64,000 nucleotides of DNA, taken from assembly GCA_002238905.1 (NCBI GenBank), contig MPNG01000004.1:8461-72460 (forward strand), written 5' to 3'. Each line of letters starts with the position of its first letter. The first letter of the stretch is position 1. Below, one piece after another: positions 39,194 to 55,450 of the stretch. The stretch comes from Alphaproteobacteria bacterium bin98 (lineage in GTDB: Bacteria; Pseudomonadota; Alphaproteobacteria; Bin98). Under the pieces are notes generated by a model, which was given only the letters and a program-made list of their open reading frames with translations, searched no databases and was not told the origin of the DNA. A program made the position numbers and the translations under genes.

Positions 39194-40276
39194 ATGTTGG
39201 GAGGCTTTCGTACAGCGCTGCTAGTAGCGCTCTTTATATCATTATTCTGTAACGCAGCGCCGATGCGTGTGGGCGTTATGACATCATCACCACCTTTTGC
39301 ATGGCAAAAGGAAGATGGGTCGTTTCATGGTGCCAGTTTAGACTTATGGTCGGCTATTGCAGAAAAAAATAATTATCGTTTTGAATATGTTTCTGCTGGT
39401 CAAAATATTCAGCAGGCATTAAATCTTTTGGATGCCAAAGAAATAGATGTTCTTGTGGGTCCTATTTCTGTGACAGAGGCACGTTACAAAAAGTATGACT
39501 TCACTCGTCCTTACTTTTTAAATCACTTATCTTTGATTGTTCCTGCAGCAGAAGCAGGAAGTCGTTGGCGTATGCTTGCAAGCGCTTTGTGGGAACCATT
39601 ATCCTTTGTGCTTCCTATTTTGCTTTGTGTGATTCTTGTGATGACTTGTTTCTTTTGTTTCTTTGATAGTGCTGCCAATCGTAAGAAACAACACAGCAAG
39701 CTACACTCCTTTTTTGATGCTTTTTGGGAAGTTGTTTTGATACTGATACAAGGTGAGATATTGCACGACACACGACACACTGGTAAGCGAATCTTGACAT
39801 TAATGTGGCTTATATCCTCTATTGGTCTCTTGTCGATTCTCATAGGAACCGTAACGTCATCTTTGACTGTTTTTGATGAAAAAGCTGAAAAAGCCTATCG
39901 TGTGCTACGCTCTGATTTAGAATCGCAAAAAATAGCTGTTGTGAAAGGCAGTGTGAGCGATCAAGAAGTTCTGCGAGTAGGGGCTGCGCCTGTGCGTGTT
40001 AAAACACGTATGGAAGCTGTGAAGCTTGTTCAAGAGAATGCCGTCTTTGGAATGGTGGATGACTTCTTGATTTTAAAATCTCTACGCTCAGAGAATTCAG
40101 GAATGCGCTCGACGCAACTTAATCTGAAAAATGATGAAATTGCCTTTGCGTTTCCAAAATCATCTCAGTACATTCAAGAGGTTAACAAAGCTATTCTCGC
40201 ACTGCAAGATACAGGAATGTCTGAAACTGTTTGTCGCAAGTACCTCGGCAAAGATGCAGTTTTGTGTTTGCTGTGA
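39194..40276 (+). CDS. ionotropic glutamate receptor-like ligand-gated channel (SBP_bac_3 S1 - M1 - pore loop - M2 - S2)
   Basis: periplasmic binding lobes split by two TM helices and a re-entrant segment FWEVVLILIQGE...RILTLMWLISSIGLLSILIGTVTSSLTV resembling iGluR pore/M3. Confidence 0.6.
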   Translation: MLGGFRTALLVALFISLFCNAAPMRVGVMTSSPPFAWQKEDGSFHGASLDLWSAIAEKNNYRFEYVSAGQNIQQALNLLDAKEIDVLVGPISVTEARYKKYDFTRPYFLNHLSLIVPAAEAGSRWRMLASALWEPLSFVLPILLCVILVMTCFFCFFDSAANRKKQHSKLHSFFDAFWEVVLILIQGEILHDTRHTGKRILTLMWLISSIGLLSILIGTVTSSLTVFDEKAEKAYRVLRSDLESQKIAVVKGSVSDQEVLRVGAAPVRVKTRMEAVKLVQENAVFGMVDDFLILKSLRSENSGMRSTQLNLKNDEIAFAFPKSSQYIQEVNKAILALQDTGMSETVCRKYLGKDAVLCLL

Positions 40277-40295
40277 TTGCTAAAAACATATCTGA

Positions 40296-40328
40296 GCTGT
40301 GGCGCTGAAGCGCCACAGCCTTTTTATT
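40296..40328 (+). terminator. rho-independent terminator
   Basis: perfect 10-bp stem gctgtggcgc/gcgccacagc, loop tgaa, followed by cttttta. Confidence 0.8.
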
Positions 40329-40489
40329 ACTCACTTGTTACTCCATATATGGGAGGTGTGTATTTAAGCAAGATAAGGCGTAAACCAATACCATCTTTAG
40401 TTAGATCTCTTTTAGCCACAACTTTTTCACTTCTACGATAGATCGTTCATTATGATGATGGTATTATGGATCATTATTAAGGAGTAAGA

Positions 40490-41698
40490 ATGAAGAGATT
40501 CATAGTATTAAGTATGTTTTTTACAAATCTATTGATTGGAAGTGAAGGCAGTATTGGAGCAGACGATAGAGAGACGTTGAATGGTGGTAAGCAGCGAACT
40601 GTTCTGCGAATTACTGTAAAGCAAAAAGTTTGTGGTGGGGTAGAAGTTGGTAATGACGTTGCAACGCGAGCTGTGGAGCAATCTGAACCTCCAATTTCTG
40701 TAACTCAACAAGTTTGTGATGCATTGGCAACAAAGGCTTGGGATACTGTATCTAAGGTGAGCAAAAATGATTCTCTACCTCCTGTAGTTTTGCAAGTTGT
40801 GCCTGATGGTTATTATTATGCTCAAGTTTTGAAAGGCGCTAAGGATGCAGGCATGGTGAAGTCAGTCATTCCTATCTCTGCAGAATTTTTTGATCCAGAA
40901 AACGCAATGGAGTTATACCATCAGAGGAAACGGGAAATCTGTCAAGATGAACCAGGAAACATCATTGTTTGTGATGCTGTTTTCGATACTGGCATGACGA
41001 TTGCAAAGATTTTGCTTGTATTGAAAAAGCAAAAACTGGACAGAAAATATCATCTTGCTTTTCTGTACCTTAAATCAAGTCTATGCGATGAAGAAGATAT
41101 TTATGCAGATGCACGCACTAGATTGGCAGAAGCAATGGCATCTGCTCAGACATGTAAACGCCCTTTTAATACACAAGTCGAGCAACACTTGAGTTGGATT
41201 AAAGACCATATCTTAAGCTTTTATGCAGCATCATGTCTAAGCAGCGGTGATATGCCAGGTAGGCTGGTGCTGCCTGCAGAGGACGGAAACCCTATAGATT
41301 CATCATGCCTAACAGATTTTGTGAGATCCATAACAAGTTCTGGCGCAGGTATGAGCAAATATAGTGTTTTGATTTGTTTTTCTTCTGAGATGAATGATTA
41401 TAAAGAAAATCAAGAATTGAGTAATCTATTGAACTACATGAGTGAGCATCCATTGCTTAAAGGCAGAGTGAGCTATGGCATTGGTTATCCTTCTAGTAAA
41501 CAAGGTGAAAAAGTTAAAGAGGTTTTTTTTGCACAAGATACAAGACCTAAAAACCGCGGTCGTGTATTGGGCATTGTTGCGCAAAAAGTGTTCGGTGATT
41601 ATACTGATTTTACAAAATATATCATTAGAAGTGAGGGGTTGAAAGATTTGTGTTACCCCAACCCAATTCCTTTGCTATATGGACAGTGTGATTGTTAA
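40490..41698 (+). CDS. secreted UPRT-like-fold family protein, member 2 (degenerate PRPP loop)
   Basis: SD aaggag; signal peptide; VVPDGYYY and IIVCDAVFDTGMT motifs; about 40% GC. Confidence 0.6.
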   Translation: MKRFIVLSMFFTNLLIGSEGSIGADDRETLNGGKQRTVLRITVKQKVCGGVEVGNDVATRAVEQSEPPISVTQQVCDALATKAWDTVSKVSKNDSLPPVVLQVVPDGYYYAQVLKGAKDAGMVKSVIPISAEFFDPENAMELYHQRKREICQDEPGNIIVCDAVFDTGMTIAKILLVLKKQKLDRKYHLAFLYLKSSLCDEEDIYADARTRLAEAMASAQTCKRPFNTQVEQHLSWIKDHILSFYAASCLSSGDMPGRLVLPAEDGNPIDSSCLTDFVRSITSSGAGMSKYSVLICFSSEMNDYKENQELSNLLNYMSEHPLLKGRVSYGIGYPSSKQGEKVKEVFFAQDTRPKNRGRVLGIVAQKVFGDYTDFTKYIIRSEGLKDLCYPNPIPLLYGQCDC

Positions 41699-41733
41699 TT
41701 AACGAAAACCAGCCAATTAAAAAATATTGAATA

Positions 41734-41773
41734 AAAGCGCAAAAATGACTCTTTGCGCTTTTAGTATTTTTTT
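41734..41773 (+). terminator. rho-independent terminator
   Basis: stem aaagcgcaaa/tttgcgcttt followed by T-run. Confidence 0.7.
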
Positions 41774-41800
41774 GTCACATCAGTCGTTTTTTTCTAGTGG

Positions 41801-42075
41801 ATTGTGCTAAAATCATTCTCGCGAACTGTAAATATGCACATAACAAAAGGAGATAAACTCTTGACGCCAAAGTGTATTTTGCAATTTTAAAGACTTAAAG
41901 TGTAAACATCGTGGCTAGAGAGTCTCTTTTTTTTTAAACAAAACCATCAAGGGCAATGTCGTATCTACGATATACAATTCATTATGATGATGCTATTAAG
42001 GATTATATTGGCGGCGTAAGAGTGAAGATGTTTATAATATTAAGTATTTTTTTTACAAATCTATTGCTGAAGTGA
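41801..42075 (+). pseudogene. mosaic remnant: promoter plus 5' end of member-4-type gene (41801-41965) followed by 5' end of member-2-type gene (41966-42075), both truncated by stops
   Basis: nucleotide similarity to 43392-43560 and to 40431-40545; ATG->TTG then TAA at 41888; second fragment stops at TGA 42073. Confidence 0.7.
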
Positions 42076-42103
42076 ATATAGTGCTTTTGACTCTAGTTGC
42101 GTT

Positions 42104-43357
42104 TTGAGAGACTCTTTGAAAGAGTGGGGGCGCTTGCAAGCTTTGGCACGTAAACCAGGTTACATGCTTGTTAAAAAAAATAGAAATGGCGTTTTTGTGA
42201 AAGAGAATGCTGACTCCGATCAAACGCTATTTGTGTGCAAAGATGGAGAGCAAATAGTGAAGCGTTGTGGTATCTGTGCAGGAGTCAGAAAGGTTCTTCC
42301 CACTATTGCCGTAAGTCAAAAAGTTTCTGATGAATTGGCCGCAGAAGCTTTGCGTTATACTTTAGGTTCAGTAGAGAAAAATTGTGAGCCCTCTCCTGTA
42401 ATTTTCCAAGTGGTGCCTGATGGTTATTATTATGGTGAAGCGTTGAAAGATGCTAAGATTTCAAGTATGGCGATACCAGTCATTGCAGCCTCTGAATCTG
42501 GTCTTGAGAGATTTGCAAATCACCCAGGAAACATCATTATCTGTGATTCTATTTTAGATACTGGAGAGAAGTGTGCAAAGATTTTGCTTGTATTGAGAAA
42601 TCAACAACCGCACAGAAAATACTATCTTGCTTTTCAGTACTTAAAAGAAGATTATTATGCACTCAATGTGACTGCATCTGCACGCCATACCCCTATAAAT
42701 GCTCGATGGATATTGGCAACACGAATGGCACATATTGAGCTTCATATGCCAGAGGAGGCACAAATAAAGAAAAATTATTCTTGGATTCAAGAACATATCT
42801 TAAGCTTTTATGCAGCATCATGTCCAAGCAGGTGTGATATGTCCGGTTGGTTGATCCTTCCTGGAGAAGGCGGAAACCCTATAGAATCTCAATGCTCACT
42901 ATCTCTGATAGAGCACCTAAAACATGTAACCCATAATAGGCACTGTTATGTTTGTTTTTCTTCTGATGCGAGTGACTATGAAGCAAATCAAGTATTGCTA
43001 AAGTTATTGAACTACATGAGTGAGATTGCATGCTTTAAAAGCAGAGTGAGCTATGGCATTTGTGACTATCCTGCTGAGCATGAATCTGGAAAAATGGAAG
43101 AGGTTTTTGTACAAGATACAACACCTGCAAACCGTGATAATGTATATGGCTTCACTATGCAATTATTACAAGATCATCAGGATCATGTTTTTAGCGATTA
43201 TTGCATTGGATTGCCAGCGTTGTGTGACCAAATCCCTTATCCAACAAACCCAGTGCCTTTGGGACCTGCAGAGTGTATGAAAGTTCACAAGCCAAGAGCT
43301 TTAAATGTTATCGCAAAATATTTAATAAAATCGCAAAGATCACTCTTTTTTCTTTGA
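42104..43357 (+). CDS. UPRT-like-fold family protein, member 3; TTG start, no signal peptide in frame (possible pseudogene or leaderless variant)
   Basis: about 55% aa identity to member 2 (NIIICDSILDTGEK, SWIQEHILSFYAASC, LLNYMSE); upstream signal-peptide remnant is in another frame. Confidence 0.5.
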   Translation: MRDSLKEWGRLQALARKPGYMLVKKNRNGVFVKENADSDQTLFVCKDGEQIVKRCGICAGVRKVLPTIAVSQKVSDELAAEALRYTLGSVEKNCEPSPVIFQVVPDGYYYGEALKDAKISSMAIPVIAASESGLERFANHPGNIIICDSILDTGEKCAKILLVLRNQQPHRKYYLAFQYLKEDYYALNVTASARHTPINARWILATRMAHIELHMPEEAQIKKNYSWIQEHILSFYAASCPSRCDMSGWLILPGEGGNPIESQCSLSLIEHLKHVTHNRHCYVCFSSDASDYEANQVLLKLLNYMSEIACFKSRVSYGICDYPAEHESGKMEEVFVQDTTPANRDNVYGFTMQLLQDHQDHVFSDYCIGLPALCDQIPYPTNPVPLGPAECMKVHKPRALNVIAKYLIKSQRSLFFL

Positions 43358-43394
43358 TTATTGTTTCTTCTAACGTTTTTTTTTAGTTTTACTG

Positions 43395-43403
43395 TGCTAT
43401 AAT
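43395..43403 (+). promoter_or_regulatory. extended -10 element TGcTATAAT for member 4
   Basis: TGnTATAAT 45 nt upstream of ATG; the same element, slightly degraded, sits in the remnant at 41804. Confidence 0.45.
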
Positions 43404-43449
43404 CCTTCTAGCGAGGGCAACTGTAGAGCCCATAACAAAAGGAGATATA

Positions 43450-45057
43450 ATGTTGACGCCAAAGTGTATTTTGCTAATGTTTTTAGCAATTTCAAATATT
43501 CAAAGTGAAAACATCGGGGCTAAAGAGCCTCTTTTTTTTAATAAAACACCATCAAGAGAAGTATCGTACATAAGGACACCGCACTATCACACTTCTGATC
43601 CAGATCAAGTCCAACAAAGTGCACCTGTCTCTTTTGATCATATGACAAAAATGCTTGGACCTATTGATAGAGGTGCGCAGTTATTTTGGTTTAAGCATGA
43701 TGATAAGGATCAATATACGCTTATGCTCGCGCCTTCTGAGCGCCTCACAAAACTTTTTGTGATAGTGGCATTGGCTGAAAAATGTCAGCAGATTATAACA
43801 GAAGGTGGTGCGTGGGAAGATATAATGCTTGTTTTGCCAATGCGTGGTGGCACAATTGCAATGGATAAGGGTATGGATATCGACAGCCGTGATGAATGCA
43901 TTGCAGCTCTTACAGAGCTAGGTGTGAGTAAGGATATCCTAGACTTTCTTAAGGAAAATTTTGAACGCATTCGCCATCTTCCTATGTTGCCATTAACGAT
44001 ACAAAGTTTGGTAGGTCGTCAAGTTCAGCAGGATATGCGATTGGGAGATTTAAGCACTGTAACCGCTGAAAAACAACTTATTGTTTGTGACGATCTTGCG
44101 GATACGTTTAGTACGCAAGCGCGCACTATAATGTATATTCTTGATACTTTGCAGGCAAGAGGCGTTATTTTAGAGAAACCTATTGCGCTAGCAGTAGGAT
44201 GTGTGAAAAATGGGCGCCAAGAAGACGTTTCTTTAAAGTGTGGTGATGTACCTGTTAAACTTTTGCAAAAGAAACTGCGTGGCACTGTTGATGAAAGAAT
44301 TGATTTCTTCTTTAACAAAGCTATATGGGAAAATATGATGCAAAAGGATGCAGATTTTTTGAAAAAATTGAATGAAATCGCACAACCAGCAATGCGTCAG
44401 AAGTTAGCTGAAGAGTTTTATACAGCACACAAAAAAGCGATTGAAGATGCAGCGTATAATCTTTACGGATCTCATCTGGATCGTAGTGTAACAAAAGCTC
44501 TTGCTGTTAATACGTTTGTTGATCAAGGATGGACAACAAAAGATTGTGTGGACAATCTTTGGATTGCTTTGCATCAAGTAACGGTAAACTCTTACGCCAA
44601 AGGATCTATGCTGGATATTGTACAGGCCGACTTGTCACAGTATAATTTGGTATTGTTCCCTATGGCTTCTGATGGTAGACATGTGTATGATACAGGTGCT
44701 AATTATAGTAATGAAGCGGAGGAATGGGCTGATTCGATTGGTATGAAGTCTCCTATGCAGTGTCAGTCGCCGATTTATGTGCATGGAAAATCATTCATGC
44801 AAAACGTTAAGGGTAATTATCGGAAGGTGCTGGTTTATGTACCAAAGAAGCTACCGGCATACCTATCCTTTACAAGCGAAGACATGAAGAAGGCTCTTGC
44901 AACAGAAATGCCACACGCAACCATTAGGGTGTATGATCAAGATGCTCAACGTCCACAACCGCTTCCTGCAGGGGGAGCAAAAATTCTTGAGGAAACAAAA
45001 GTGATTACTCAAGAAGAATTGAAAAAGTGTGTGCAGTTAACTGCTCAAAATCACTAA
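43450..45057 (+). CDS. secreted UPRT-like-fold family protein, member 4 (degenerate PRPP loop, long C-terminal domain)
   Basis: signal peptide MLTPKCILLMFLAISNIQS; LVLPMRGGTIAM; LIVCDDLADTFST; about 35% GC. Confidence 0.6.
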   Translation: MLTPKCILLMFLAISNIQSENIGAKEPLFFNKTPSREVSYIRTPHYHTSDPDQVQQSAPVSFDHMTKMLGPIDRGAQLFWFKHDDKDQYTLMLAPSERLTKLFVIVALAEKCQQIITEGGAWEDIMLVLPMRGGTIAMDKGMDIDSRDECIAALTELGVSKDILDFLKENFERIRHLPMLPLTIQSLVGRQVQQDMRLGDLSTVTAEKQLIVCDDLADTFSTQARTIMYILDTLQARGVILEKPIALAVGCVKNGRQEDVSLKCGDVPVKLLQKKLRGTVDERIDFFFNKAIWENMMQKDADFLKKLNEIAQPAMRQKLAEEFYTAHKKAIEDAAYNLYGSHLDRSVTKALAVNTFVDQGWTTKDCVDNLWIALHQVTVNSYAKGSMLDIVQADLSQYNLVLFPMASDGRHVYDTGANYSNEAEEWADSIGMKSPMQCQSPIYVHGKSFMQNVKGNYRKVLVYVPKKLPAYLSFTSEDMKKALATEMPHATIRVYDQDAQRPQPLPAGGAKILEETKVITQEELKKCVQLTAQNH

Positions 45058-47648
45058 GACCGTACAGCATCAAAGCGCGCAAGAGACTCTTGCGCAGCTT
45101 TGATGCTTTCTTGTAAAGAAACCACCTTATTGCGCCAAAGATCTTTTGTTTCTGCAGGGGCTTTTATTTGCTTGTTGATTTTATTCTGAAGAGATTCAGT
45201 ATGCGCTTGTATTTCTTTGATTTTTTTGTGCAGCAGATCTTGTTCATTGTTAATATCCATGTGCGGCGCAGTGATAAAGAGGGAGGTTTTTCCAACAGCA
45301 ACGCGTAAGGTTAGAGGCGCCTTTGATCGATCGCACCATATCACATCAAGTGGGCACATATGAGAAAAGAGTGATGAAAACAGTGAAAACTGCTTTTTGA
45401 CCTCTGAATCTTCGCTCCATAAGGCGCAGACCATGTCTGTGCTGGGAAGGTGCTTATGGTAGGATCTCACTTGATTAACCACATCTTGAAACCACTGCAT
45501 AGAGGCAGGTTCCGATGTGCTGTTTTGCGCTGTTGGCCATGGATGAAGCGCTAAAGCATTTTGTTGCTCAAAGGACTGCCAGATTTCTTCTGTGATATGT
45601 GGTGCGTAAGGATGAAGTAATATCAAAAACCTTTGTAAACAGAATCCAAATGTTGCATATGTTTCGGGAGCGTATTCTTCTTCTGCGAACAGCGGTTTTG
45701 TGCCCTCGATATACCAATCACAAAAGAAGTGCCAAAACGCTTTATATAATGTGAGCGCTGCTTCTTGAAATCCGTAAGTGTTTAACGATTTTGTAATCGC
45801 TGTGGTGGTTTCATTAATGATGTGTAGCACCCATTGATTCAGGGGGTGTGCTGGTGTAGGCTCTGCGTGTATAAGCGAGACGTTGTTCATGTGTGCGTAA
45901 CGTGCGGTATTCCATATTTTAGTGCAAAAGTTACGCATAGAAACGATGGTTTGTGGTGATAGTCGCACATCTTGTCCAGGAGAGGCGCTGTACATGAGCG
46001 TTAAGCGCAGGCTATCGGCACCGTATTCTTCCAAAATAGAAAGAGGATTGACAACGTTTCCTTTAGATTTAGACATTTTTTGGCCTTTTTCATCACGAAT
46101 AAGTCCATGAATTAACACATGACGAAAAGGAACAGTGTTTGTGAGTTGCAGGGACATCATCATCATTCGTGCAACCCAAAAGAAAATAATATCAAAACCT
46201 GTGACCAAAACGCTGGAAGGAAAATGTTCCGGGTGTGGTGTTTTTGTGGGCCAGTCGAGTGTGGCAAACGGCCATAGGCCAGAAGAAAACCATGTATCTA
46301 ACACATCGTTGTCTTGCTGTAGTGTTGTGGGTTTTCCATAATGTGTGAAGGCTTGTTCTTGTGCTTCTTGTTCTGAATGAGCCACAAAGTAATGGTTGTC
46401 AGGACCCCACCATACAGGAATGCGATGGCCCCAATAAATTTGACGTGAAATACACCAAGGCTCAATATTATCTAGCCATTGCTGAAACACTTTCCCCCAA
46501 CGCGATGGAAAAAATTGTACATCGCCCTTTTTAAAAGCGATCAGAGATTTTTCAGCCATTGGTTTGGTGTCTACAAACCACTGATCGGTCAGAAATGGCT
46601 CTATGACTGTGTTAGAACGGTCTCCGTAAGGCACTGTGTGATTACAAGATTCCTCTTGCACAATGTGATTTTTTGAGGCGAGTTCTTGCAGAATTTGTTT
46701 GCGCGCTTTGAATACAGAAAGGTTGTGGTAGTGAGCAGGTGTGCGTTCGTTGAGAGAACCATCTTTGTTTAAAATATTGACACTATCAAGATTATGACGT
46801 TTTCCAACAGCGTGATCATTAAAATCGTGTGCAGGAGTAATTTTAACCACACCAGATCCCTTATCTGGTTGGGCGTGATGATCTGCTATGATGGGAATTT
46901 CTTTATTGATAATGGGAATAAACGCTTTTTTTCCAATAAAGTTTTGATAGCGCTCGTCGCTGGGGTGTACTGCAAGAGCTGTGTCACCAAACAAAGTTTC
47001 TGGACGTGTTGTGGCGACTGTTAAGGGAGTGATCTCTGTTTCATAAGTAATATGATAGAGTGTGCCTTTTTGTTCTTTTTGGAGGATTTCAAGATCAGAA
47101 ATGGCTGTTTGTAGTTTTGTGTCCCAATTTACTAACGTTTTTTTTCTAAAAATAAGACCTTGCTGGTGTAGGCGTACAAAAGCGGTGGTTACTGCGTGAG
47201 AGAGGCCTGTATCCATTGTAAAGCGGGTACGCTCCCAATGGGCACTTGTGCCAAGTGTTTTGAGCTGGTTCAGAATGGTGTCGTTATAAAGGTGCTTCCA
47301 TTCCCATATATGCTTTAGTAATTCTTCGCGCGAGAGTGTGTGTGCGTTAATACCTTTTTCTGTGAGGTCTTGGATCACACGTGTTTGGGTTGCGATTCCT
47401 GCATGATCTGTGCCTGGTTGCCAAAGAATATTTTTTTGCTGCATGCGGTGAAATCGCATGAGTGCGTCCTGTAAAGAGAAAGTGAGTGCGTGGCCTACGT
47501 GCAATGATCCGGTGACATTAGCCGGTGGCATCATAATGGTAAAGGTGCCTTTTTCTTTTTGTGGCTCTTGATAATGCTCAATGCGGTGTTTTTTCCAAAC
47601 ATCACGGCTTTTTTGTTCAACGGTTGGCGCGTGATACTTTTTATCCAT
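45054..47648 (-). CDS. valS: valine--tRNA ligase
   Basis: HVGHALT, KMSKS, C-terminal coiled coil; 4-nt convergent overlap with member 4. Confidence 0.95.
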   Translation of the reverse strand: MDKKYHAPTVEQKSRDVWKKHRIEHYQEPQKEKGTFTIMMPPANVTGSLHVGHALTFSLQDALMRFHRMQQKNILWQPGTDHAGIATQTRVIQDLTEKGINAHTLSREELLKHIWEWKHLYNDTILNQLKTLGTSAHWERTRFTMDTGLSHAVTTAFVRLHQQGLIFRKKTLVNWDTKLQTAISDLEILQKEQKGTLYHITYETEITPLTVATTRPETLFGDTALAVHPSDERYQNFIGKKAFIPIINKEIPIIADHHAQPDKGSGVVKITPAHDFNDHAVGKRHNLDSVNILNKDGSLNERTPAHYHNLSVFKARKQILQELASKNHIVQEESCNHTVPYGDRSNTVIEPFLTDQWFVDTKPMAEKSLIAFKKGDVQFFPSRWGKVFQQWLDNIEPWCISRQIYWGHRIPVWWGPDNHYFVAHSEQEAQEQAFTHYGKPTTLQQDNDVLDTWFSSGLWPFATLDWPTKTPHPEHFPSSVLVTGFDIIFFWVARMMMMSLQLTNTVPFRHVLIHGLIRDEKGQKMSKSKGNVVNPLSILEEYGADSLRLTLMYSASPGQDVRLSPQTIVSMRNFCTKIWNTARYAHMNNVSLIHAEPTPAHPLNQWVLHIINETTTAITKSLNTYGFQEAALTLYKAFWHFFCDWYIEGTKPLFAEEEYAPETYATFGFCLQRFLILLHPYAPHITEEIWQSFEQQNALALHPWPTAQNSTSEPASMQWFQDVVNQVRSYHKHLPSTDMVCALWSEDSEVKKQFSLFSSLFSHMCPLDVIWCDRSKAPLTLRVAVGKTSLFITAPHMDINNEQDLLHKKIKEIQAHTESLQNKINKQIKAPAETKDLWRNKVVSLQESIKAAQESLARFDAVRS

Positions 47649-51218: not shown

Positions 51219-53150
51219 CTAAGTTAAACGCATCGCTTCTGTTTGTGCTTTGTAAAGACTGTAAAATGTACCTTGTTGTGCGAGCAGTTCATCAAATTGC
51301 CCTTGTTCAATGATCTTTCCTTCTGAAAACACAAGAATAGTGTCCATTGCGCGAAGAGATGCAACGCGGTGTGTGGCGATGAGAGCAGTTTTTCCATCCA
51401 TAAGATCGGTAATCGTCTCTTGGATTTTTTGCTCTGTTAAGGGGTCCAGCTGAGAAGCTGCTTCATCTAGAACAAGGATAGGTGCGTTTTTTAAAATAAC
51501 TCTTGCAATAGTAACTCGTTGTTTTTGGCCGCCAGAAAGTTTTAATCCTTGTTCACCAACGATAGAGTCGTATCCTTCAGGCTTTGTTTTAATAAAGGAG
51601 TCAGCGTCTGCTAGTTGTGCAGCGCGTGTAACTTCTTCCATAGAAGCATTGGGTTTTCCATAAAGGATATTTTCTTTTAAAGAGCGATGAAATAGCTGTG
51701 CATGCTGCGGAATGCATCCAACAGCTTGATGCAGCGATGAGATTTGAATGTTGCGTATATCTTGTCCATCTAAGGTGATTGAGCCAGAGTCAACATCATA
51801 GAGTCGTAAAAACAGGTTTAGAAAAGAGGATTTACCACTTCCTGACTCACCCACAATGCCTACCTTCTGTCCATGTGGAATGGTTAAGGAGAGGTTTTCA
51901 AAAAGAGGCTCTTCTTCTTTGTTGTAGGAGAATGTAACGTTGTGAAAAGTGATTGCTCCACGGGTTTTTTTCAAAGGCTCTGCTTCTGGCGAGTCCTTTG
52001 TTCCTATGGGTGCAAGAAGATCTGAAAGAGCACTGTTTACTTGCCCAGTTGCGTCTTGAAGGTCGTGCACACGGTGTACCAGGTTCCATAGGTTGTCTGC
52101 AATATACGCAGAGCTTCCGAGGATAAAAACCGCATCACCAAGAGAAAGTTTGCTGTGTTCATACATAAGCAGAAGGCCAAAAGCGCCACATGCCAAAAGA
52201 GATGACATGCAAATCCCCTGCAAAATATTCATAACGAAAATGGTCCATTCTTTACGCTGATAAGCGAGAAAAAGCTGTGATGTAAATGAGCGAATGTATT
52301 GGGTTTCAAAGTCCAATCGTGAAAAAAGGCGCACAGTATCTATATTAGCAGTGCTGTCTACAATGCGGCCAGAAACATTCGCTAGTTCTTGAGCATAAAG
52401 CGCTCCGTTGCGCATGATGCGGCGTTGAAAGAGGGCAATGATCACAAAAAACACGCATACCCAAAGAGCAAAAAATGTGGCAAAAAGGGGATGGATAAAG
52501 GCGATTGCGACTGAGGAGATGAAGATTTGCGCTACCGCATGTAAGACGCACGCCATGGCGCCGTAGCATGTGCTTTCAGCAAAGAGCGCTACAATATTAA
52601 TTTTTGCGGATAAAGATCCTTTCAGATTATTTTGAAAAAACGCATGAGAATGTTGACCAATATAGTTGAACAGGTGGCTCATGATTTTTGTTTTTATCAT
52701 TGGCGCCGTATGAATACGAATAATACCAATGCAGCGCCAAAGCAGCTGGTTGCCTTGATGCACAAGAATATAAACAATGACGCTTGCAAAAGCGCTATCA
52801 AACGCTAATGCAGGAGATATGTTGAGGGAGTCGATAATTTTTTTAAGGGTGAATGAACTGACTGTCGAATAGCTGCTGGCGCCAATTAAGGCTATAAAGA
52901 ATAGTACAACACGAACGGGGTAGTCTTTGTAACACCAGTGTAAAAAAGGCCAAAACGTTTGAGGTATTTTTTGTTGTTTGTCGTTCACATTACATAATAC
53001 ACGCTTACAAAAAATAAAAAAAGGGATTAGAACATTAAGAAAAAATGTTAGTCTTTGTTGTATATGGAGAGTGCATGACAGAAAAGATAGCAGTTGGTTT
53101 GGTATGTGGTGGCCCTTCTTTGGAGCGTGGTATTTCTTTAAATTCAGCAC
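51219..53150 (-). CDS. ABC exporter, fused permease/ATPase (MsbA-like)
   Basis: 6-TM N-domain; Walker A GESGSGKSS, signature LSGGQKQRV, Walker B ILVLDEA; true start uncertain. Confidence 0.8.
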   Translation of the reverse strand: MLNLKKYHAPKKGHHIPNQLLSFLSCTLHIQQRLTFFLNVLIPFFIFCKRVLCNVNDKQQKIPQTFWPFLHWCYKDYPVRVVLFFIALIGASSYSTVSSFTLKKIIDSLNISPALAFDSAFASVIVYILVHQGNQLLWRCIGIIRIHTAPMIKTKIMSHLFNYIGQHSHAFFQNNLKGSLSAKINIVALFAESTCYGAMACVLHAVAQIFISSVAIAFIHPLFATFFALWVCVFFVIIALFQRRIMRNGALYAQELANVSGRIVDSTANIDTVRLFSRLDFETQYIRSFTSQLFLAYQRKEWTIFVMNILQGICMSSLLACGAFGLLLMYEHSKLSLGDAVFILGSSAYIADNLWNLVHRVHDLQDATGQVNSALSDLLAPIGTKDSPEAEPLKKTRGAITFHNVTFSYNKEEEPLFENLSLTIPHGQKVGIVGESGSGKSSFLNLFLRLYDVDSGSITLDGQDIRNIQISSLHQAVGCIPQHAQLFHRSLKENILYGKPNASMEEVTRAAQLADADSFIKTKPEGYDSIVGEQGLKLSGGQKQRVTIARVILKNAPILVLDEAASQLDPLTEQKIQETITDLMDGKTALIATHRVASLRAMDTILVFSEGKIIEQGQFDELLAQQGTFYSLYKAQTEAMRLT

Positions 53151-55450
53151 GCACGCTTTTGGACCACTTAGGCGCTTCGGACGACATAGAGATTGTGCCT
53201 TTTTATGTAGATGTAAAGGAGCGATTTTACCGTATTACCTGTGCTCAGCTTTACTCTAACACCCCATCAGATTTTGATTTTAAACTAACAAAAAAAGATC
53301 TATTACCATGGGAGAAATGTGTAGAGCATATGCGAGATTTGGATATTGTTTTTCCTGTGATTCATGGTGCGTTTGGCGAAGATGGAACGTTGCAGAGATT
53401 GCTAAACGAAGCTGGTATTCCGTTTGTGGGCGCGGACGCTTCTTGCTGCCGTCAAATGGTAGATAAAAAATCTATGCGTATGTTTTTGAAAAAGAAGAAA
53501 CTGGGTCATTTAGAGTCGTTGCAGGTTTTGTATCAAGGTGAGTCAGGGTTGGCATGGATGGTTCAAAAATTTTGGGATGAATCTGTCCAGAATGCAGCGG
53601 TTGTGAAACCCAATAGGGGTGGATCATCCATTGGCGTTTCCATGGTTACGAGTGTGGATGAAGCCATGCGCTGTGTGTCAGATTTGCATGATCGGGGTGA
53701 AAAAGAGGTCATCTTGGAGCCGTTTGTGCATGGTCGTGAATTTACCGTTATTGTGTTACAGGACCATGAAACAGGCTCGCCAGTGGCACTTCTTCCTACA
53801 GAAATAAGTCTTTTGACGGAAGAGAGATTTCCAATGTTTTCTTACCGACGAAAATATTTACCAACCGCGAATACACTGTGGACGTGTCCATCGTTTGAAG
53901 AAAACCATATGTTAGAAAGCATTCAAAAAGAAGCGGAGTGTCTTTTTGAGAGTTTGGGGTGTCGTGATTTTGTACGATTTGATGGATGGGTTGTGGATGG
54001 CCGTATTGTATGGTCGGACTTTAACCCTATTAGCGGTTTTGAACAAAACAGTTTTATATTTTTGCAAGGTGTACGAACAGGCATGACCCATCAACACGTG
54101 CTGCGCTATATTCTTAATAACGCTTTGCAGCGTGTTGATAAAGCGCTGCCACTTGGTGTGGAATATGACCCTGAGGTGTCTGGTCGCAGCGTGAGGGTGC
54201 TGTTTGGTGGAGATACGGCTGAAAGGCAGGTATCACTGATGAGTGGATTGAATGTTTGGTTGCAGTTGATGCACACCCGCAATTATGTGGTTACGCCTTA
54301 TTTATTGTCAGGCAATGATGTGTGGCAAATACCGTATGCATTTGCGTTGTTTCATACAGTGGAAGAAATTTTAGAACAATGCCAAAGTGCTCTTGCTGTG
54401 CGAAAATCGGTGTTGTCGCTGCGAGCTGACTTGCGTGATCGGCTGCATCTGGCGCCCATGGAAGATTTTGAGATGCCTACACGTACATCGTTGACAGAAT
54501 TTATCGCTCAGGCAAAATCTGATAATGCCTATGTGTTTTTGGGGCTTCATGGCGGTATAGGGGAAGATGGAAGCATACAAGCGCTTTTAACGCAAAGTGG
54601 CTGTCAATATAATGGATCACTTTCTGAGCCAAGCGCTTTGTTTATGGATAAGAAGCGCACAGGAGAGTATATTAACTCCTTGCATATGTCGCATATATCA
54701 GCTCTTCCTAAGATTTTGCTTTCTGCTAAAGAGGGAGTGAGCTCTTTTGACAATTTATGGAAACGTTTGGTTTCTGATTTGGGTTCAAAAAAAATTATTA
54801 TTAAGCCAAACTTTGATGGTTGTTCTGCGGGTGTGGTGTTATTAACGAGAGCGCATGATTTGAAAATATACTTTTCTTTGCTTGGTCAGGAAGCTGTGGA
54901 AATTCCTCCACATACCTTTGAAGCGCAAGAAAGCGTTATTGTGTTGCCGCATGCAGAAGAGCTTATTTGTGAGCCATTCATTGAGTGTGACGAGATTTGT
55001 ATTCGCAATCAAGAGCTTACTCTTAAGAAAAAAACAGGTTGGGTGGAGCTTACGGTAGGGGTTGTGCGTGCAAGTGGTCAGCAGAGGCATCACGCATTTC
55101 ATCCAAGCATGACGATAGCGGATGGATCCGTTTTAAGTTTAGAAGAAAAATTCCAAGGAGGAACAGGCATTAATATTACACCTCCGCCTGTGCTTGTGAT
55201 GTCAGAAGATGACATTATAGTAATGCGGAAAAGGCTATCTGATCTAGCAAGTAAGCTAGGAGTTGGTGATTATGCGCGCATTGATCTTTTTTACCATCGT
55301 GAGCGCAAAGAAATGTGTATCATTGAGGTAAATGCTTTGCCGGGATTGACGCCATCAACAGTGTTGTACCATCAGTCCCTTGCTGACGAAACTCCCCTGA
55401 CTCCAAGGGAGTTTCTAGCGTTTATGTTGAAGAGATCAGCGCAATCTTAA
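53075..55450 (+). CDS. ddl: tandem-fused double D-alanine--D-alanine ligase (two complete ATP-grasp Ddl modules)
   Basis: module 1 VIHGAFGEDGTLQ...GGSSIG...RRKYLP...SDFNPISG; module 2 GLHGGIGEDGSIQ...DGCSAG...IEVNALPG. Confidence 0.8.
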   Translation: MTEKIAVGLVCGGPSLERGISLNSARTLLDHLGASDDIEIVPFYVDVKERFYRITCAQLYSNTPSDFDFKLTKKDLLPWEKCVEHMRDLDIVFPVIHGAFGEDGTLQRLLNEAGIPFVGADASCCRQMVDKKSMRMFLKKKKLGHLESLQVLYQGESGLAWMVQKFWDESVQNAAVVKPNRGGSSIGVSMVTSVDEAMRCVSDLHDRGEKEVILEPFVHGREFTVIVLQDHETGSPVALLPTEISLLTEERFPMFSYRRKYLPTANTLWTCPSFEENHMLESIQKEAECLFESLGCRDFVRFDGWVVDGRIVWSDFNPISGFEQNSFIFLQGVRTGMTHQHVLRYILNNALQRVDKALPLGVEYDPEVSGRSVRVLFGGDTAERQVSLMSGLNVWLQLMHTRNYVVTPYLLSGNDVWQIPYAFALFHTVEEILEQCQSALAVRKSVLSLRADLRDRLHLAPMEDFEMPTRTSLTEFIAQAKSDNAYVFLGLHGGIGEDGSIQALLTQSGCQYNGSLSEPSALFMDKKRTGEYINSLHMSHISALPKILLSAKEGVSSFDNLWKRLVSDLGSKKIIIKPNFDGCSAGVVLLTRAHDLKIYFSLLGQEAVEIPPHTFEAQESVIVLPHAEELICEPFIECDEICIRNQELTLKKKTGWVELTVGVVRASGQQRHHAFHPSMTIADGSVLSLEEKFQGGTGINITPPPVLVMSEDDIIVMRKRLSDLASKLGVGDYARIDLFYHRERKEMCIIEVNALPGLTPSTVLYHQSLADETPLTPREFLAFMLKRSAQS

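Follow-up and report, generated by a model that had tools for sequence, protein, structure and literature searches.

A probable tandem-duplication joint bearing decayed 5' ends of two adjacent orphan genes in a sponge-symbiont alphaproteobacterium

Gene duplication and amplification in bacteria is known to give rise to tandem, head-to-tail segmental duplications that are marked by a novel join point. The locus described here, from Alphaproteobacteria bacterium bin98, lies in a window of 64,000 nucleotides (the whole stretch of DNA that was analysed, to which all coordinates refer; GC content 42.7%) and resembles such duplications in several respects: it contains two direct, collinear copies, with the end of the first abutting the start of the second; one gene (gene B) is truncated at the joint, and redundant parts appear to have decayed afterwards; and the joint unites sequences that are 3.1 kb apart in the window and would have been approximately 1.5 kb (one unit) apart in a single-copy ancestor. 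Unlike a recent and unstable amplification, the duplication is both old (dS about 0.35) and fixed, and the microhomology still visible at the joint amounts to at most about 2 nucleotides. Taken together, the analysis points, with a probability of approximately 85%, to one old tandem duplication, head to tail and about 1.5 kb long, of which this stretch is the joint.

A second group of described systems, in which silent cassettes or pseudogene donors bring about antigenic variation by gene conversion, is exemplified by pilS in Neisseria, msp2 in Anaplasma and vls in Borrelia. The present locus shares with them the presence of truncated, non-expressed fragments of paralogous genes for secreted or surface proteins beside an expressed gene, as well as the rapid divergence of the paralogues; it differs from them in that there is one fragment per gene, that the fragments are promoter-carrying 5' ends and not promoterless internal cassettes, that identity is low (66-81%) and accompanied by no conserved recombination flanks, and that no variation is seen between assemblies. 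Neither several donor cassettes with long identical segments nor variation of the locus, the features by which a silent-cassette system would be recognized, was found here.

The preliminary description of this DNA had interpreted 41801-42103 as a 'mosaic array' of promoter and 5' fragments, drawn from two different members of one gene family (members 2 and 4) and lying upstream of another (member 3), and had proposed segmental duplication or gene conversion followed by decay, with the array possibly serving as a substrate for recombinational variation. The decayed 5' copies of members 4 and 2 within 41801-42075 are confirmed by blastn and by alignment, and segmental duplication followed by decay is borne out by the collinearity of the units; the array itself is better described as the single joint of one duplication, whose units abut at 41963/41964. 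The 'two different family members' would really be two different adjacent genes, as judged from their sequences. The event is an ordinary product of genome evolution that reveals no new mechanism, being a standard joint followed by the loss of redundant signals, and all that sets it apart is the very rapid divergence of the two duplicated orphan genes.

Two collinear units and their joint

The features of the locus on which the argument depends are the following.

40432-41963, plus strand: duplication unit 1, defined by collinear blastn matches to unit 2 and by a global alignment profile
40490-41698, plus strand: member 2 (gene A, 402 aa), from the list of open reading frames, with an intact ribosome-binding site (SD; AAGGAG, 40479-40484), an ATG, a signal-peptide-like N-terminus and a core with weak likeness to phosphoribosyltransferases (PRT)
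41732-41763, plus strand: intrinsic-terminator-like hairpin and T run after member 2, found by scanning (fold -14.5 kcal/mol, z -3.0)
41805-41813, plus strand: copy of the extended -10-like motif of gene B, TGCTAAAAT, from alignment and pattern search (counterpart TGCTATAAT at 43395-43403)
41861-41963, plus strand: 5' coding relic of gene B, from base-by-base alignment
41960-41967, plus strand: novel joint (cgta/tctacg), from a three-way comparison, with the breakpoint at 41963/41964 at a resolution of a few nucleotides
41964-43568, plus strand: duplication unit 2, from blastn and global alignment, its first base following directly on the end of unit 1
41964-42076, plus strand: relic of the upstream and signal-peptide region of gene A, from alignment
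42104-43357, plus strand: member 3 (the A' body), a reading frame of about 400 codons that is open from the stop at 42068-42070
43326-43360, plus strand: what is left of the terminator downstream of member 3, from alignment (fold -4.4 kcal/mol, z -0.7)
43450-45057, plus strand: member 4 (gene B, 535 aa), an orphan reading frame with a signal-peptide-like N-terminus, whose first 119 nucleotides fall within unit 2

Comparison of 41700-42200 with the whole window by blastn yielded two significant non-self matches, both of them direct and collinear: 41721-41963 matched 43315-43568 (73.7% over 262 columns, E 1.8e-42), and 41964-42076 matched 40432-40546 (80.9% over 115 columns, E 4e-25). The sole other match below E 0.01, a self-inverted match of 56 nucleotides at 41720-41773 (E 0.002), corresponds to the terminator hairpin after member 2, and all further matches in the window returned E values of at least 0.09. 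A self-comparison of 40000-45300 likewise displayed significant similarity to the 5' ends of members 2 and 4, and aligned 40694-41963 with 42305-43568 as a single continuous match (E 6e-99) that spans the bodies of members 2 and 3, their 3' ends, the terminator region, the promoter-like site and the 5' end of member 4. The stretch 41721-41963 copies the end of the gene preceding it, followed by the promoter-like site, the SD and about 39 of the first codons of member 4. A member-4-like copy had previously been recognized from 41801 onwards; the copy is indeed present, and its homology begins about 80 nucleotides further left, where it joins without interruption the homology that the 3' ends of members 2 and 3 share.

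Unit 1 comprises 58 nucleotides 5' of gene A, gene A itself (member 2), its terminator, a copy of the promoter-like site and SD of gene B, and the relic of B codons 1 to about 39, and unit 2 comprises the relic of the upstream and signal-peptide region of gene A, the A' body (member 3), the decayed terminator, the true promoter-like site of gene B, its SD, and the first 119 nucleotides of B. Both copies lie in direct orientation on the plus strand, with the same order of elements across the unit, and unit 1 runs directly into unit 2 at one novel joint, which reads ...ATGTCGTA/TCTACGATA...; position 41963 is the last that follows gene B, and from 41964 onwards the sequence follows the region upstream of gene A. 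Unit 1 ends at 41963 (which matches 43568) and unit 2 starts one base later, at 41964 (which matches 40432), an arrangement that carries the signature of a tandem duplication. Nucleotide identity between the duplicated copies is only 66-81%, and the comparison of 40547-40693 with 42077-42304 detected no nucleotide similarity over some 150-230 nucleotides past the signal-peptide region, which requires either fast divergence or insertions and deletions in the mature N-terminus.

A history consistent with this structure would begin with an ancestral order of gene A (encoding a signal peptide and a divergent PRT-like core), the terminator of A, a promoter and gene B. Tandem copying of a segment running from 58 nucleotides before the ATG of A to 119 nucleotides inside B would then have produced, in order, A, its terminator, the B promoter and a B 5' stub on one side of the joint, and the upstream region of A, A', a terminator, the B promoter and the full gene B on the other. 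What lies left of the joint would be the duplicated 5' end of B, redundant and truncated, and what lies right of it the duplicated upstream region of A; the mosaic appearance arises because the seam places the first 39 or so codons of B beside the upstream region of A. A duplicated segment consisting of gene A, the intergenic region and the first 119 nucleotides of gene B would account for everything seen in the sequence. Neither a pre-duplication allele nor an outgroup was found, the families of A and B being orphans in the searches carried out, so that the direction and the age of the changes described below are drawn from one pairwise comparison.

Decay of the duplicated 5' ends and the state of member 3

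The relic of gene B retains its SD (AAGGAG, at 41847-41852) and has lost both its ATG and its reading frame. The start of member 4, ATG TTG ACG, aligns with CTC TTG ACG in the relic, so that CTC stands in place of the ATG, and the TTG at 41861 corresponds to codon 2 of member 4, which is conserved; the change from ATG to TTG that had been described earlier was the product of a 3-nucleotide misalignment, and the stop reported together with it stands, a 13-nucleotide deletion having brought a TAA (41888-41890) into frame after 9 codons. A tblastn match of member 4 to 41872-42009 corresponds to this duplicated stub, and not to a paralogue. The copy of the extended -10-like motif at 41805-41813 sits between the terminator of member 2 and member 3, and from that position may drive transcription towards member 3. 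Since the motif TGNTAWAAT is not enriched in the window (7 occurrences, against 8.9 expected), the promoter calls depend on position and conservation.

On the other side of the joint, the relic of gene A carries TGCTATTAA at 41991-41999, from which the final T of the -10 is missing (unit 1 has TGGTATTAT); its SD is destroyed, AAGGAG having become GGCGGCG; its ATG is replaced by GTG at 42022, with a new ATG at 42028; and a 2-nucleotide deletion relative to member 2 puts a TGA (42073-42075) in frame. What had been taken for a copy of the SD and signal-peptide region of member 2, closed by a TGA after 15 codons, does end at that TGA, with the 15 codons counted from the new ATG at 42028, and has lost the SD itself. 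Restoring the 2 nucleotides would join the relic signal peptide to the frame of the member 3 body, which is open from 42071, and the stop in the body frame at 42068-42070 excludes any earlier frame shift. The earlier conclusion that member 3 has no in-frame signal peptide is upheld. In sum, member 3 has lost its SD, its ATG, its frame link to the signal peptide, the last T of its -10-like motif and its terminator, all of which are expression signals that members 2 and 4 retain.

The body of member 3 presents a different picture. Candidate starts are found at TTG 42104, TTG 42116 and ATG 42164, none of them with a good SD, and gene callers place the start at 42104 or 42116. Its in-frame alignment with member 2 covers residues 62-400, of which 43% are identical. 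When neutral change was simulated at half of dS (0.175 substitutions per site), with insertions and deletions left uncounted, a reading frame of 402 codons stayed open with a probability of about 1e-4, and because of that low neutral survival the body of member 3 appears to have been kept open by selection through most of the time since the duplication. Such selection would leave two readings, namely that member 3 still yields a protein, lacking a signal peptide and translated from an internal start (TTG or ATG), or that the gene was inactivated very recently; a signal-peptide-less product would possibly be transcribed from the B-type promoter copy within the stub.

The divergence between members 2 and 3 is itself unusual in pattern. 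Their pairwise dN/dS is 1.17 (bootstrap 95% interval 0.85-1.58, with 0 replicates below 0.5); third codon positions differ by 26% and first positions by 36.5%, both reading frames being intact; and conserved blocks (77-88% nucleotide identity) alternate with blocks at chance level. A dN/dS of about 1.2, combined with third-position conservation and intact reading frames, fits diversifying selection on an orphan pair, as far as sequence comparison can indicate. Because dN/dS is about 1 or higher, the A/A' pair, a lineage-specific gene and its duplicate, would seem to be under relaxed or diversifying selection, with a few motifs conserved. Signal-peptide-like N-termini together with a faint phosphoribosyltransferase similarity and a dN/dS of about 1 in orphan genes is a profile often seen in genes for host interaction.

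For annotation, it follows from the preferred reading that the region should be recorded as a tandem-duplication joint with two 5' gene relics, and that the entry for member 3 should carry a flag for N-terminal truncation or a possible pseudogene. The locus also offers a clean, datable case in which a duplication places a copy of a neighbouring gene's promoter before a duplicate, and in which expression signals decay earlier than the reading frame. A wider, mild interest attaches to these orphan genes of an uncultured sponge-symbiont alphaproteobacterium, which are fast-evolving, possibly exported and PRT-like.

Independent assemblies and the weighing of alternatives

The window derives from an Illumina-only SPAdes metagenome assembly (MKWU), which is described in PMC5649159. 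The exact protein of member 4 was recovered on 19 contigs, four of which span the locus, one from ENA (L001) and three from JGI metagenomes (L002, L003 and L005). Over 40200-45100 all four agree with the window at 0 mismatches, the joint and the 2-nucleotide frameshift being identical in these four independent assemblies, and the sole difference is a 14-nucleotide indel near 43279:

43272-43285, plus strand: 14 nucleotides that are absent from the window and present in all other assemblies, …GAGTGTAT[TTCT]G[AGAATGTATT]AAAG…

The lack of these 14 nucleotides shifts the last codons of member 3, which has 417 aa in the window and 404 aa elsewhere (both counted from TTG 42104), the reading frame in the other assemblies ending at a TAA at 43302-43304; the difference represents either a strain polymorphism or an assembly error. 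Counted from TTG 42116, the member 3 of the window is a 413-aa protein that is recorded only from MKWU01. The same three genes are present in NCBI records as OXC30_03670, 03675 and 03680, from an Alphaproteobacteria bacterium MAG. In none of the assemblies that span the locus is there a hybrid gene or a deletion, or any change of the joint.

Whether one event or several built the stretch was assessed from the distances of its segments. Between members 2 and 3 the synonymous distance is 0.35 (dS, Nei-Gojobori, core residues), and of the 60 4-fold sites that fall within identical amino acids, 17 are different (Jukes-Cantor distance, JC, 0.36); the segment containing the terminator, the intergenic region and the promoter gives a JC of 0.34, the region upstream of gene A 0.27, and the relic signal-peptide coding segments 0.17 (to gene B) and 0.14 (to gene A), the last two being about half of dS. 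No segment distance differs significantly from that of the 4-fold sites (p 0.065-0.87), the relic signal-peptide segments being nominally closer (p 0.065-0.068). A relic distance of about half of dS is expected where the functional copy (member 4 or 2) is constrained and the relic alone drifts. These distances fit a single event and therefore make gene conversion, which the preliminary description had entertained, unnecessary, the segments matching the synonymous distance of the gene bodies; a single duplication followed by one-sided decay would suffice to explain them, as far as the aligned sequences tell, and a short, later gene-conversion tract could at most conceivably have affected the relic signal-peptide segments.

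Those same low relic values (0.14-0.17, against a synonymous 0.35) would be the principal reason for supposing that two separate events, whether partial duplications or gene-conversion tracts, had assembled a mosaic usable for recombinational variation, and the stretch directly after the signal-peptide relic, which shows no similarity to member 2, could be cited to the same end. Such a history is regarded as distinctly improbable: the fragments are the exact ends of two collinear units that meet at one point, for which one event is enough, and the lower relic distance is predicted by one-sided constraint and is not significant. Nor does the locus appear suited to such variation, the longest perfect identities between the units being 31, 23 and 22 nucleotides, at the lower limit for RecA-dependent exchange, and the structure being the same, with 0 mismatches, in every assembly that spans it.

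Two further readings, each given very little weight, concern the frame of member 3. An artefact of assembly or sequencing, such as a repeat collapsed or made chimeric, or a spurious indel splitting member 3 from its signal peptide, might be suspected from the Illumina-only metagenomic source and from the 14-nucleotide indel elsewhere in member 3; against this, copies that are 66-81% identical are too diverged to confuse an assembler, the four other assemblies agree across the joint and the 2-nucleotide frameshift (by which the notion, raised earlier, of a sequencing error whose correction restores the frame is refuted), and the SD and ATG of the relic are mutated as well, so that no single error restores a normal gene. 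It is about equally hard to credit that member 3 is made with its signal peptide through programmed +1 frameshifting or other recoding at CTG AAG TGA A (42067-42076). A single +1 shift between 42071 and 42073 would be needed, at an in-frame UGA, as likewise occurs in prfB (RF2), and the downstream frame is open from 42071; a slippery P-site codon is absent, however, AAG (tRNA-Lys) being unable to re-pair on AGU, there is no SD-like stimulator within 10 nucleotides upstream, the start of the reading frame itself has neither an SD nor an ATG, and chance alone would leave the eleven codons of 42071-42103 open in about 60% of cases.

Member 4, phosphoribosyltransferase-like motifs and genomic surroundings

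The placement of member 4 in one family with members 2 and 3, on which the preliminary description had relied, was not borne out: comparison of member 4 with members 2 and 3 gave no significant similarity (BLASTP E 1.4; hhalign probability 1.2%, covering only the IVCD..DT motif). A further gene in the window enters the comparison at this point.

33557-35167, plus strand: gene whose 536-aa product has a PRT motif of canonical appearance, YIVDDIVKSGGT, and an N-terminus resembling a signal peptide (PF00156, E 5e-4)

This gene, which is probably the 'member 1' of the preliminary description, showed no reliable relation to member 4 (E 0.004 over 31 residues; hhalign probability 12%); its score against PF00156 is 19.8 bits, below the gathering threshold of 26.3, and its only homologue is a 518-aa protein, P0010, with 46% identity, on a 1.8-kb Logan contig. 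Members 2, 3 and 4 are orphans. No homologue of members 2 and 3 beyond each other was found among 5.8 billion proteins in a word-indexed search, their profile recovered only the two paralogues from 1.84 billion representatives in an exhaustive HMMER search, member 4 matched nothing but itself among the 5.8 billion proteins, and none of members 2, 3 and 4 had a Pfam or NCBIfam match.

A faint resemblance to type I phosphoribosyltransferases (PF00156) is seen. The profile of members 2 and 3 matched the phosphoribosyltransferase PDB 7kl6_A with E 4e-4 over 83 profile positions, which include IIvCDxxxDTG, and the alignment extends over the core, with a beta strand and an 'RGG'-equivalent loop followed by the PRPP-loop-like IIvCDxxxDTG; member 4 has the motifs LPMRGG and IVCDDLADT in the same order, as read from its sequence; and the gene at 33557-35167 has YIVDDIVKSGGT. 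There are also differences: the Pfam gathering score is reached by none of the four, members 2, 3 and 4 have Cys in place of the first acidic residue of the PRPP motif, and the proteins are 400-535 aa in length, with signal-peptide-like N-termini and large extra regions. AlphaFold2 models were unusable, with a pLDDT of 30.8 for member 2 (with member 3 as the alignment) and 35.1 for member 4 alone. A common PRT-like fold for members 2, 3 and 4 and the protein of 33557-35167 is possible on the basis of these motifs.

The N-terminus of member 2, MKRFIVLSMFFTNLLIG..., is signal-peptide-like. Just past the hydrophobic N-terminal segments, similar short sequences are seen in member 2 (GSEGSIGAD, 40510-40560), member 4 (QSENIGAKE, 43480-43525) and the protein of 33557-35167 (SKNLNIG, 33600-33640), and may represent a common processing or export signal. 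Separately, a terminator-like hairpin, GGGGCTAAAGAGCCTC, followed by T8 was noted at 43516-43539 (plus strand), within the coding region of member 4 past its signal peptide; it was dropped as a candidate terminator or attenuator, since it folds weakly (-9.2 kcal/mol, z -1.8) and does not persist in the stub (-3.1).

The most extended interpretation of these genes would hold that member 3 is a live paralogue of a secreted PRT-like orphan, cytoplasmic for want of a signal peptide, selected to stay open at a dN/dS of at least 1 and expressed from the gene B promoter copy, and that, together with members 2 and 4 and the gene at 33557-35167, it belongs to a lineage-specific, fast-diversifying set of exported PRT-like proteins that serve host interaction in a reduced-genome symbiont of Aplysina sponges. 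This interpretation is tentative and, taken as a whole, rather unlikely.

The locus is flanked by two genes of recognizable type.

39194-40276: gene for a periplasmic solute-binding protein, flanking the locus on one side
45054-47648, minus strand: valS, flanking the locus on the other side

In a search anchored on valS, the ValRS was 40-51% identical to its nearest relatives among the best 80 GTDB species representatives listed, which are therefore too distant for a comparison of pre-duplication synteny, and the lineage is one without close sequenced relatives among the GTDB matches listed. The protein pattern and the exact joint sequence had no match in a metagenome contig collection, which indicates that the organism is absent from that collection, and no RNA family was detected by Rfam in 40200-45300 at E <= 1. 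Further along the window, at 53045-55450 (plus strand), an open reading frame of 801 aa contains two successive sets of D-Ala-D-Ala ligase N- and C-domains (as judged from Pfam matches to the same gene in L001), and its product looks like a fused double Ddl.
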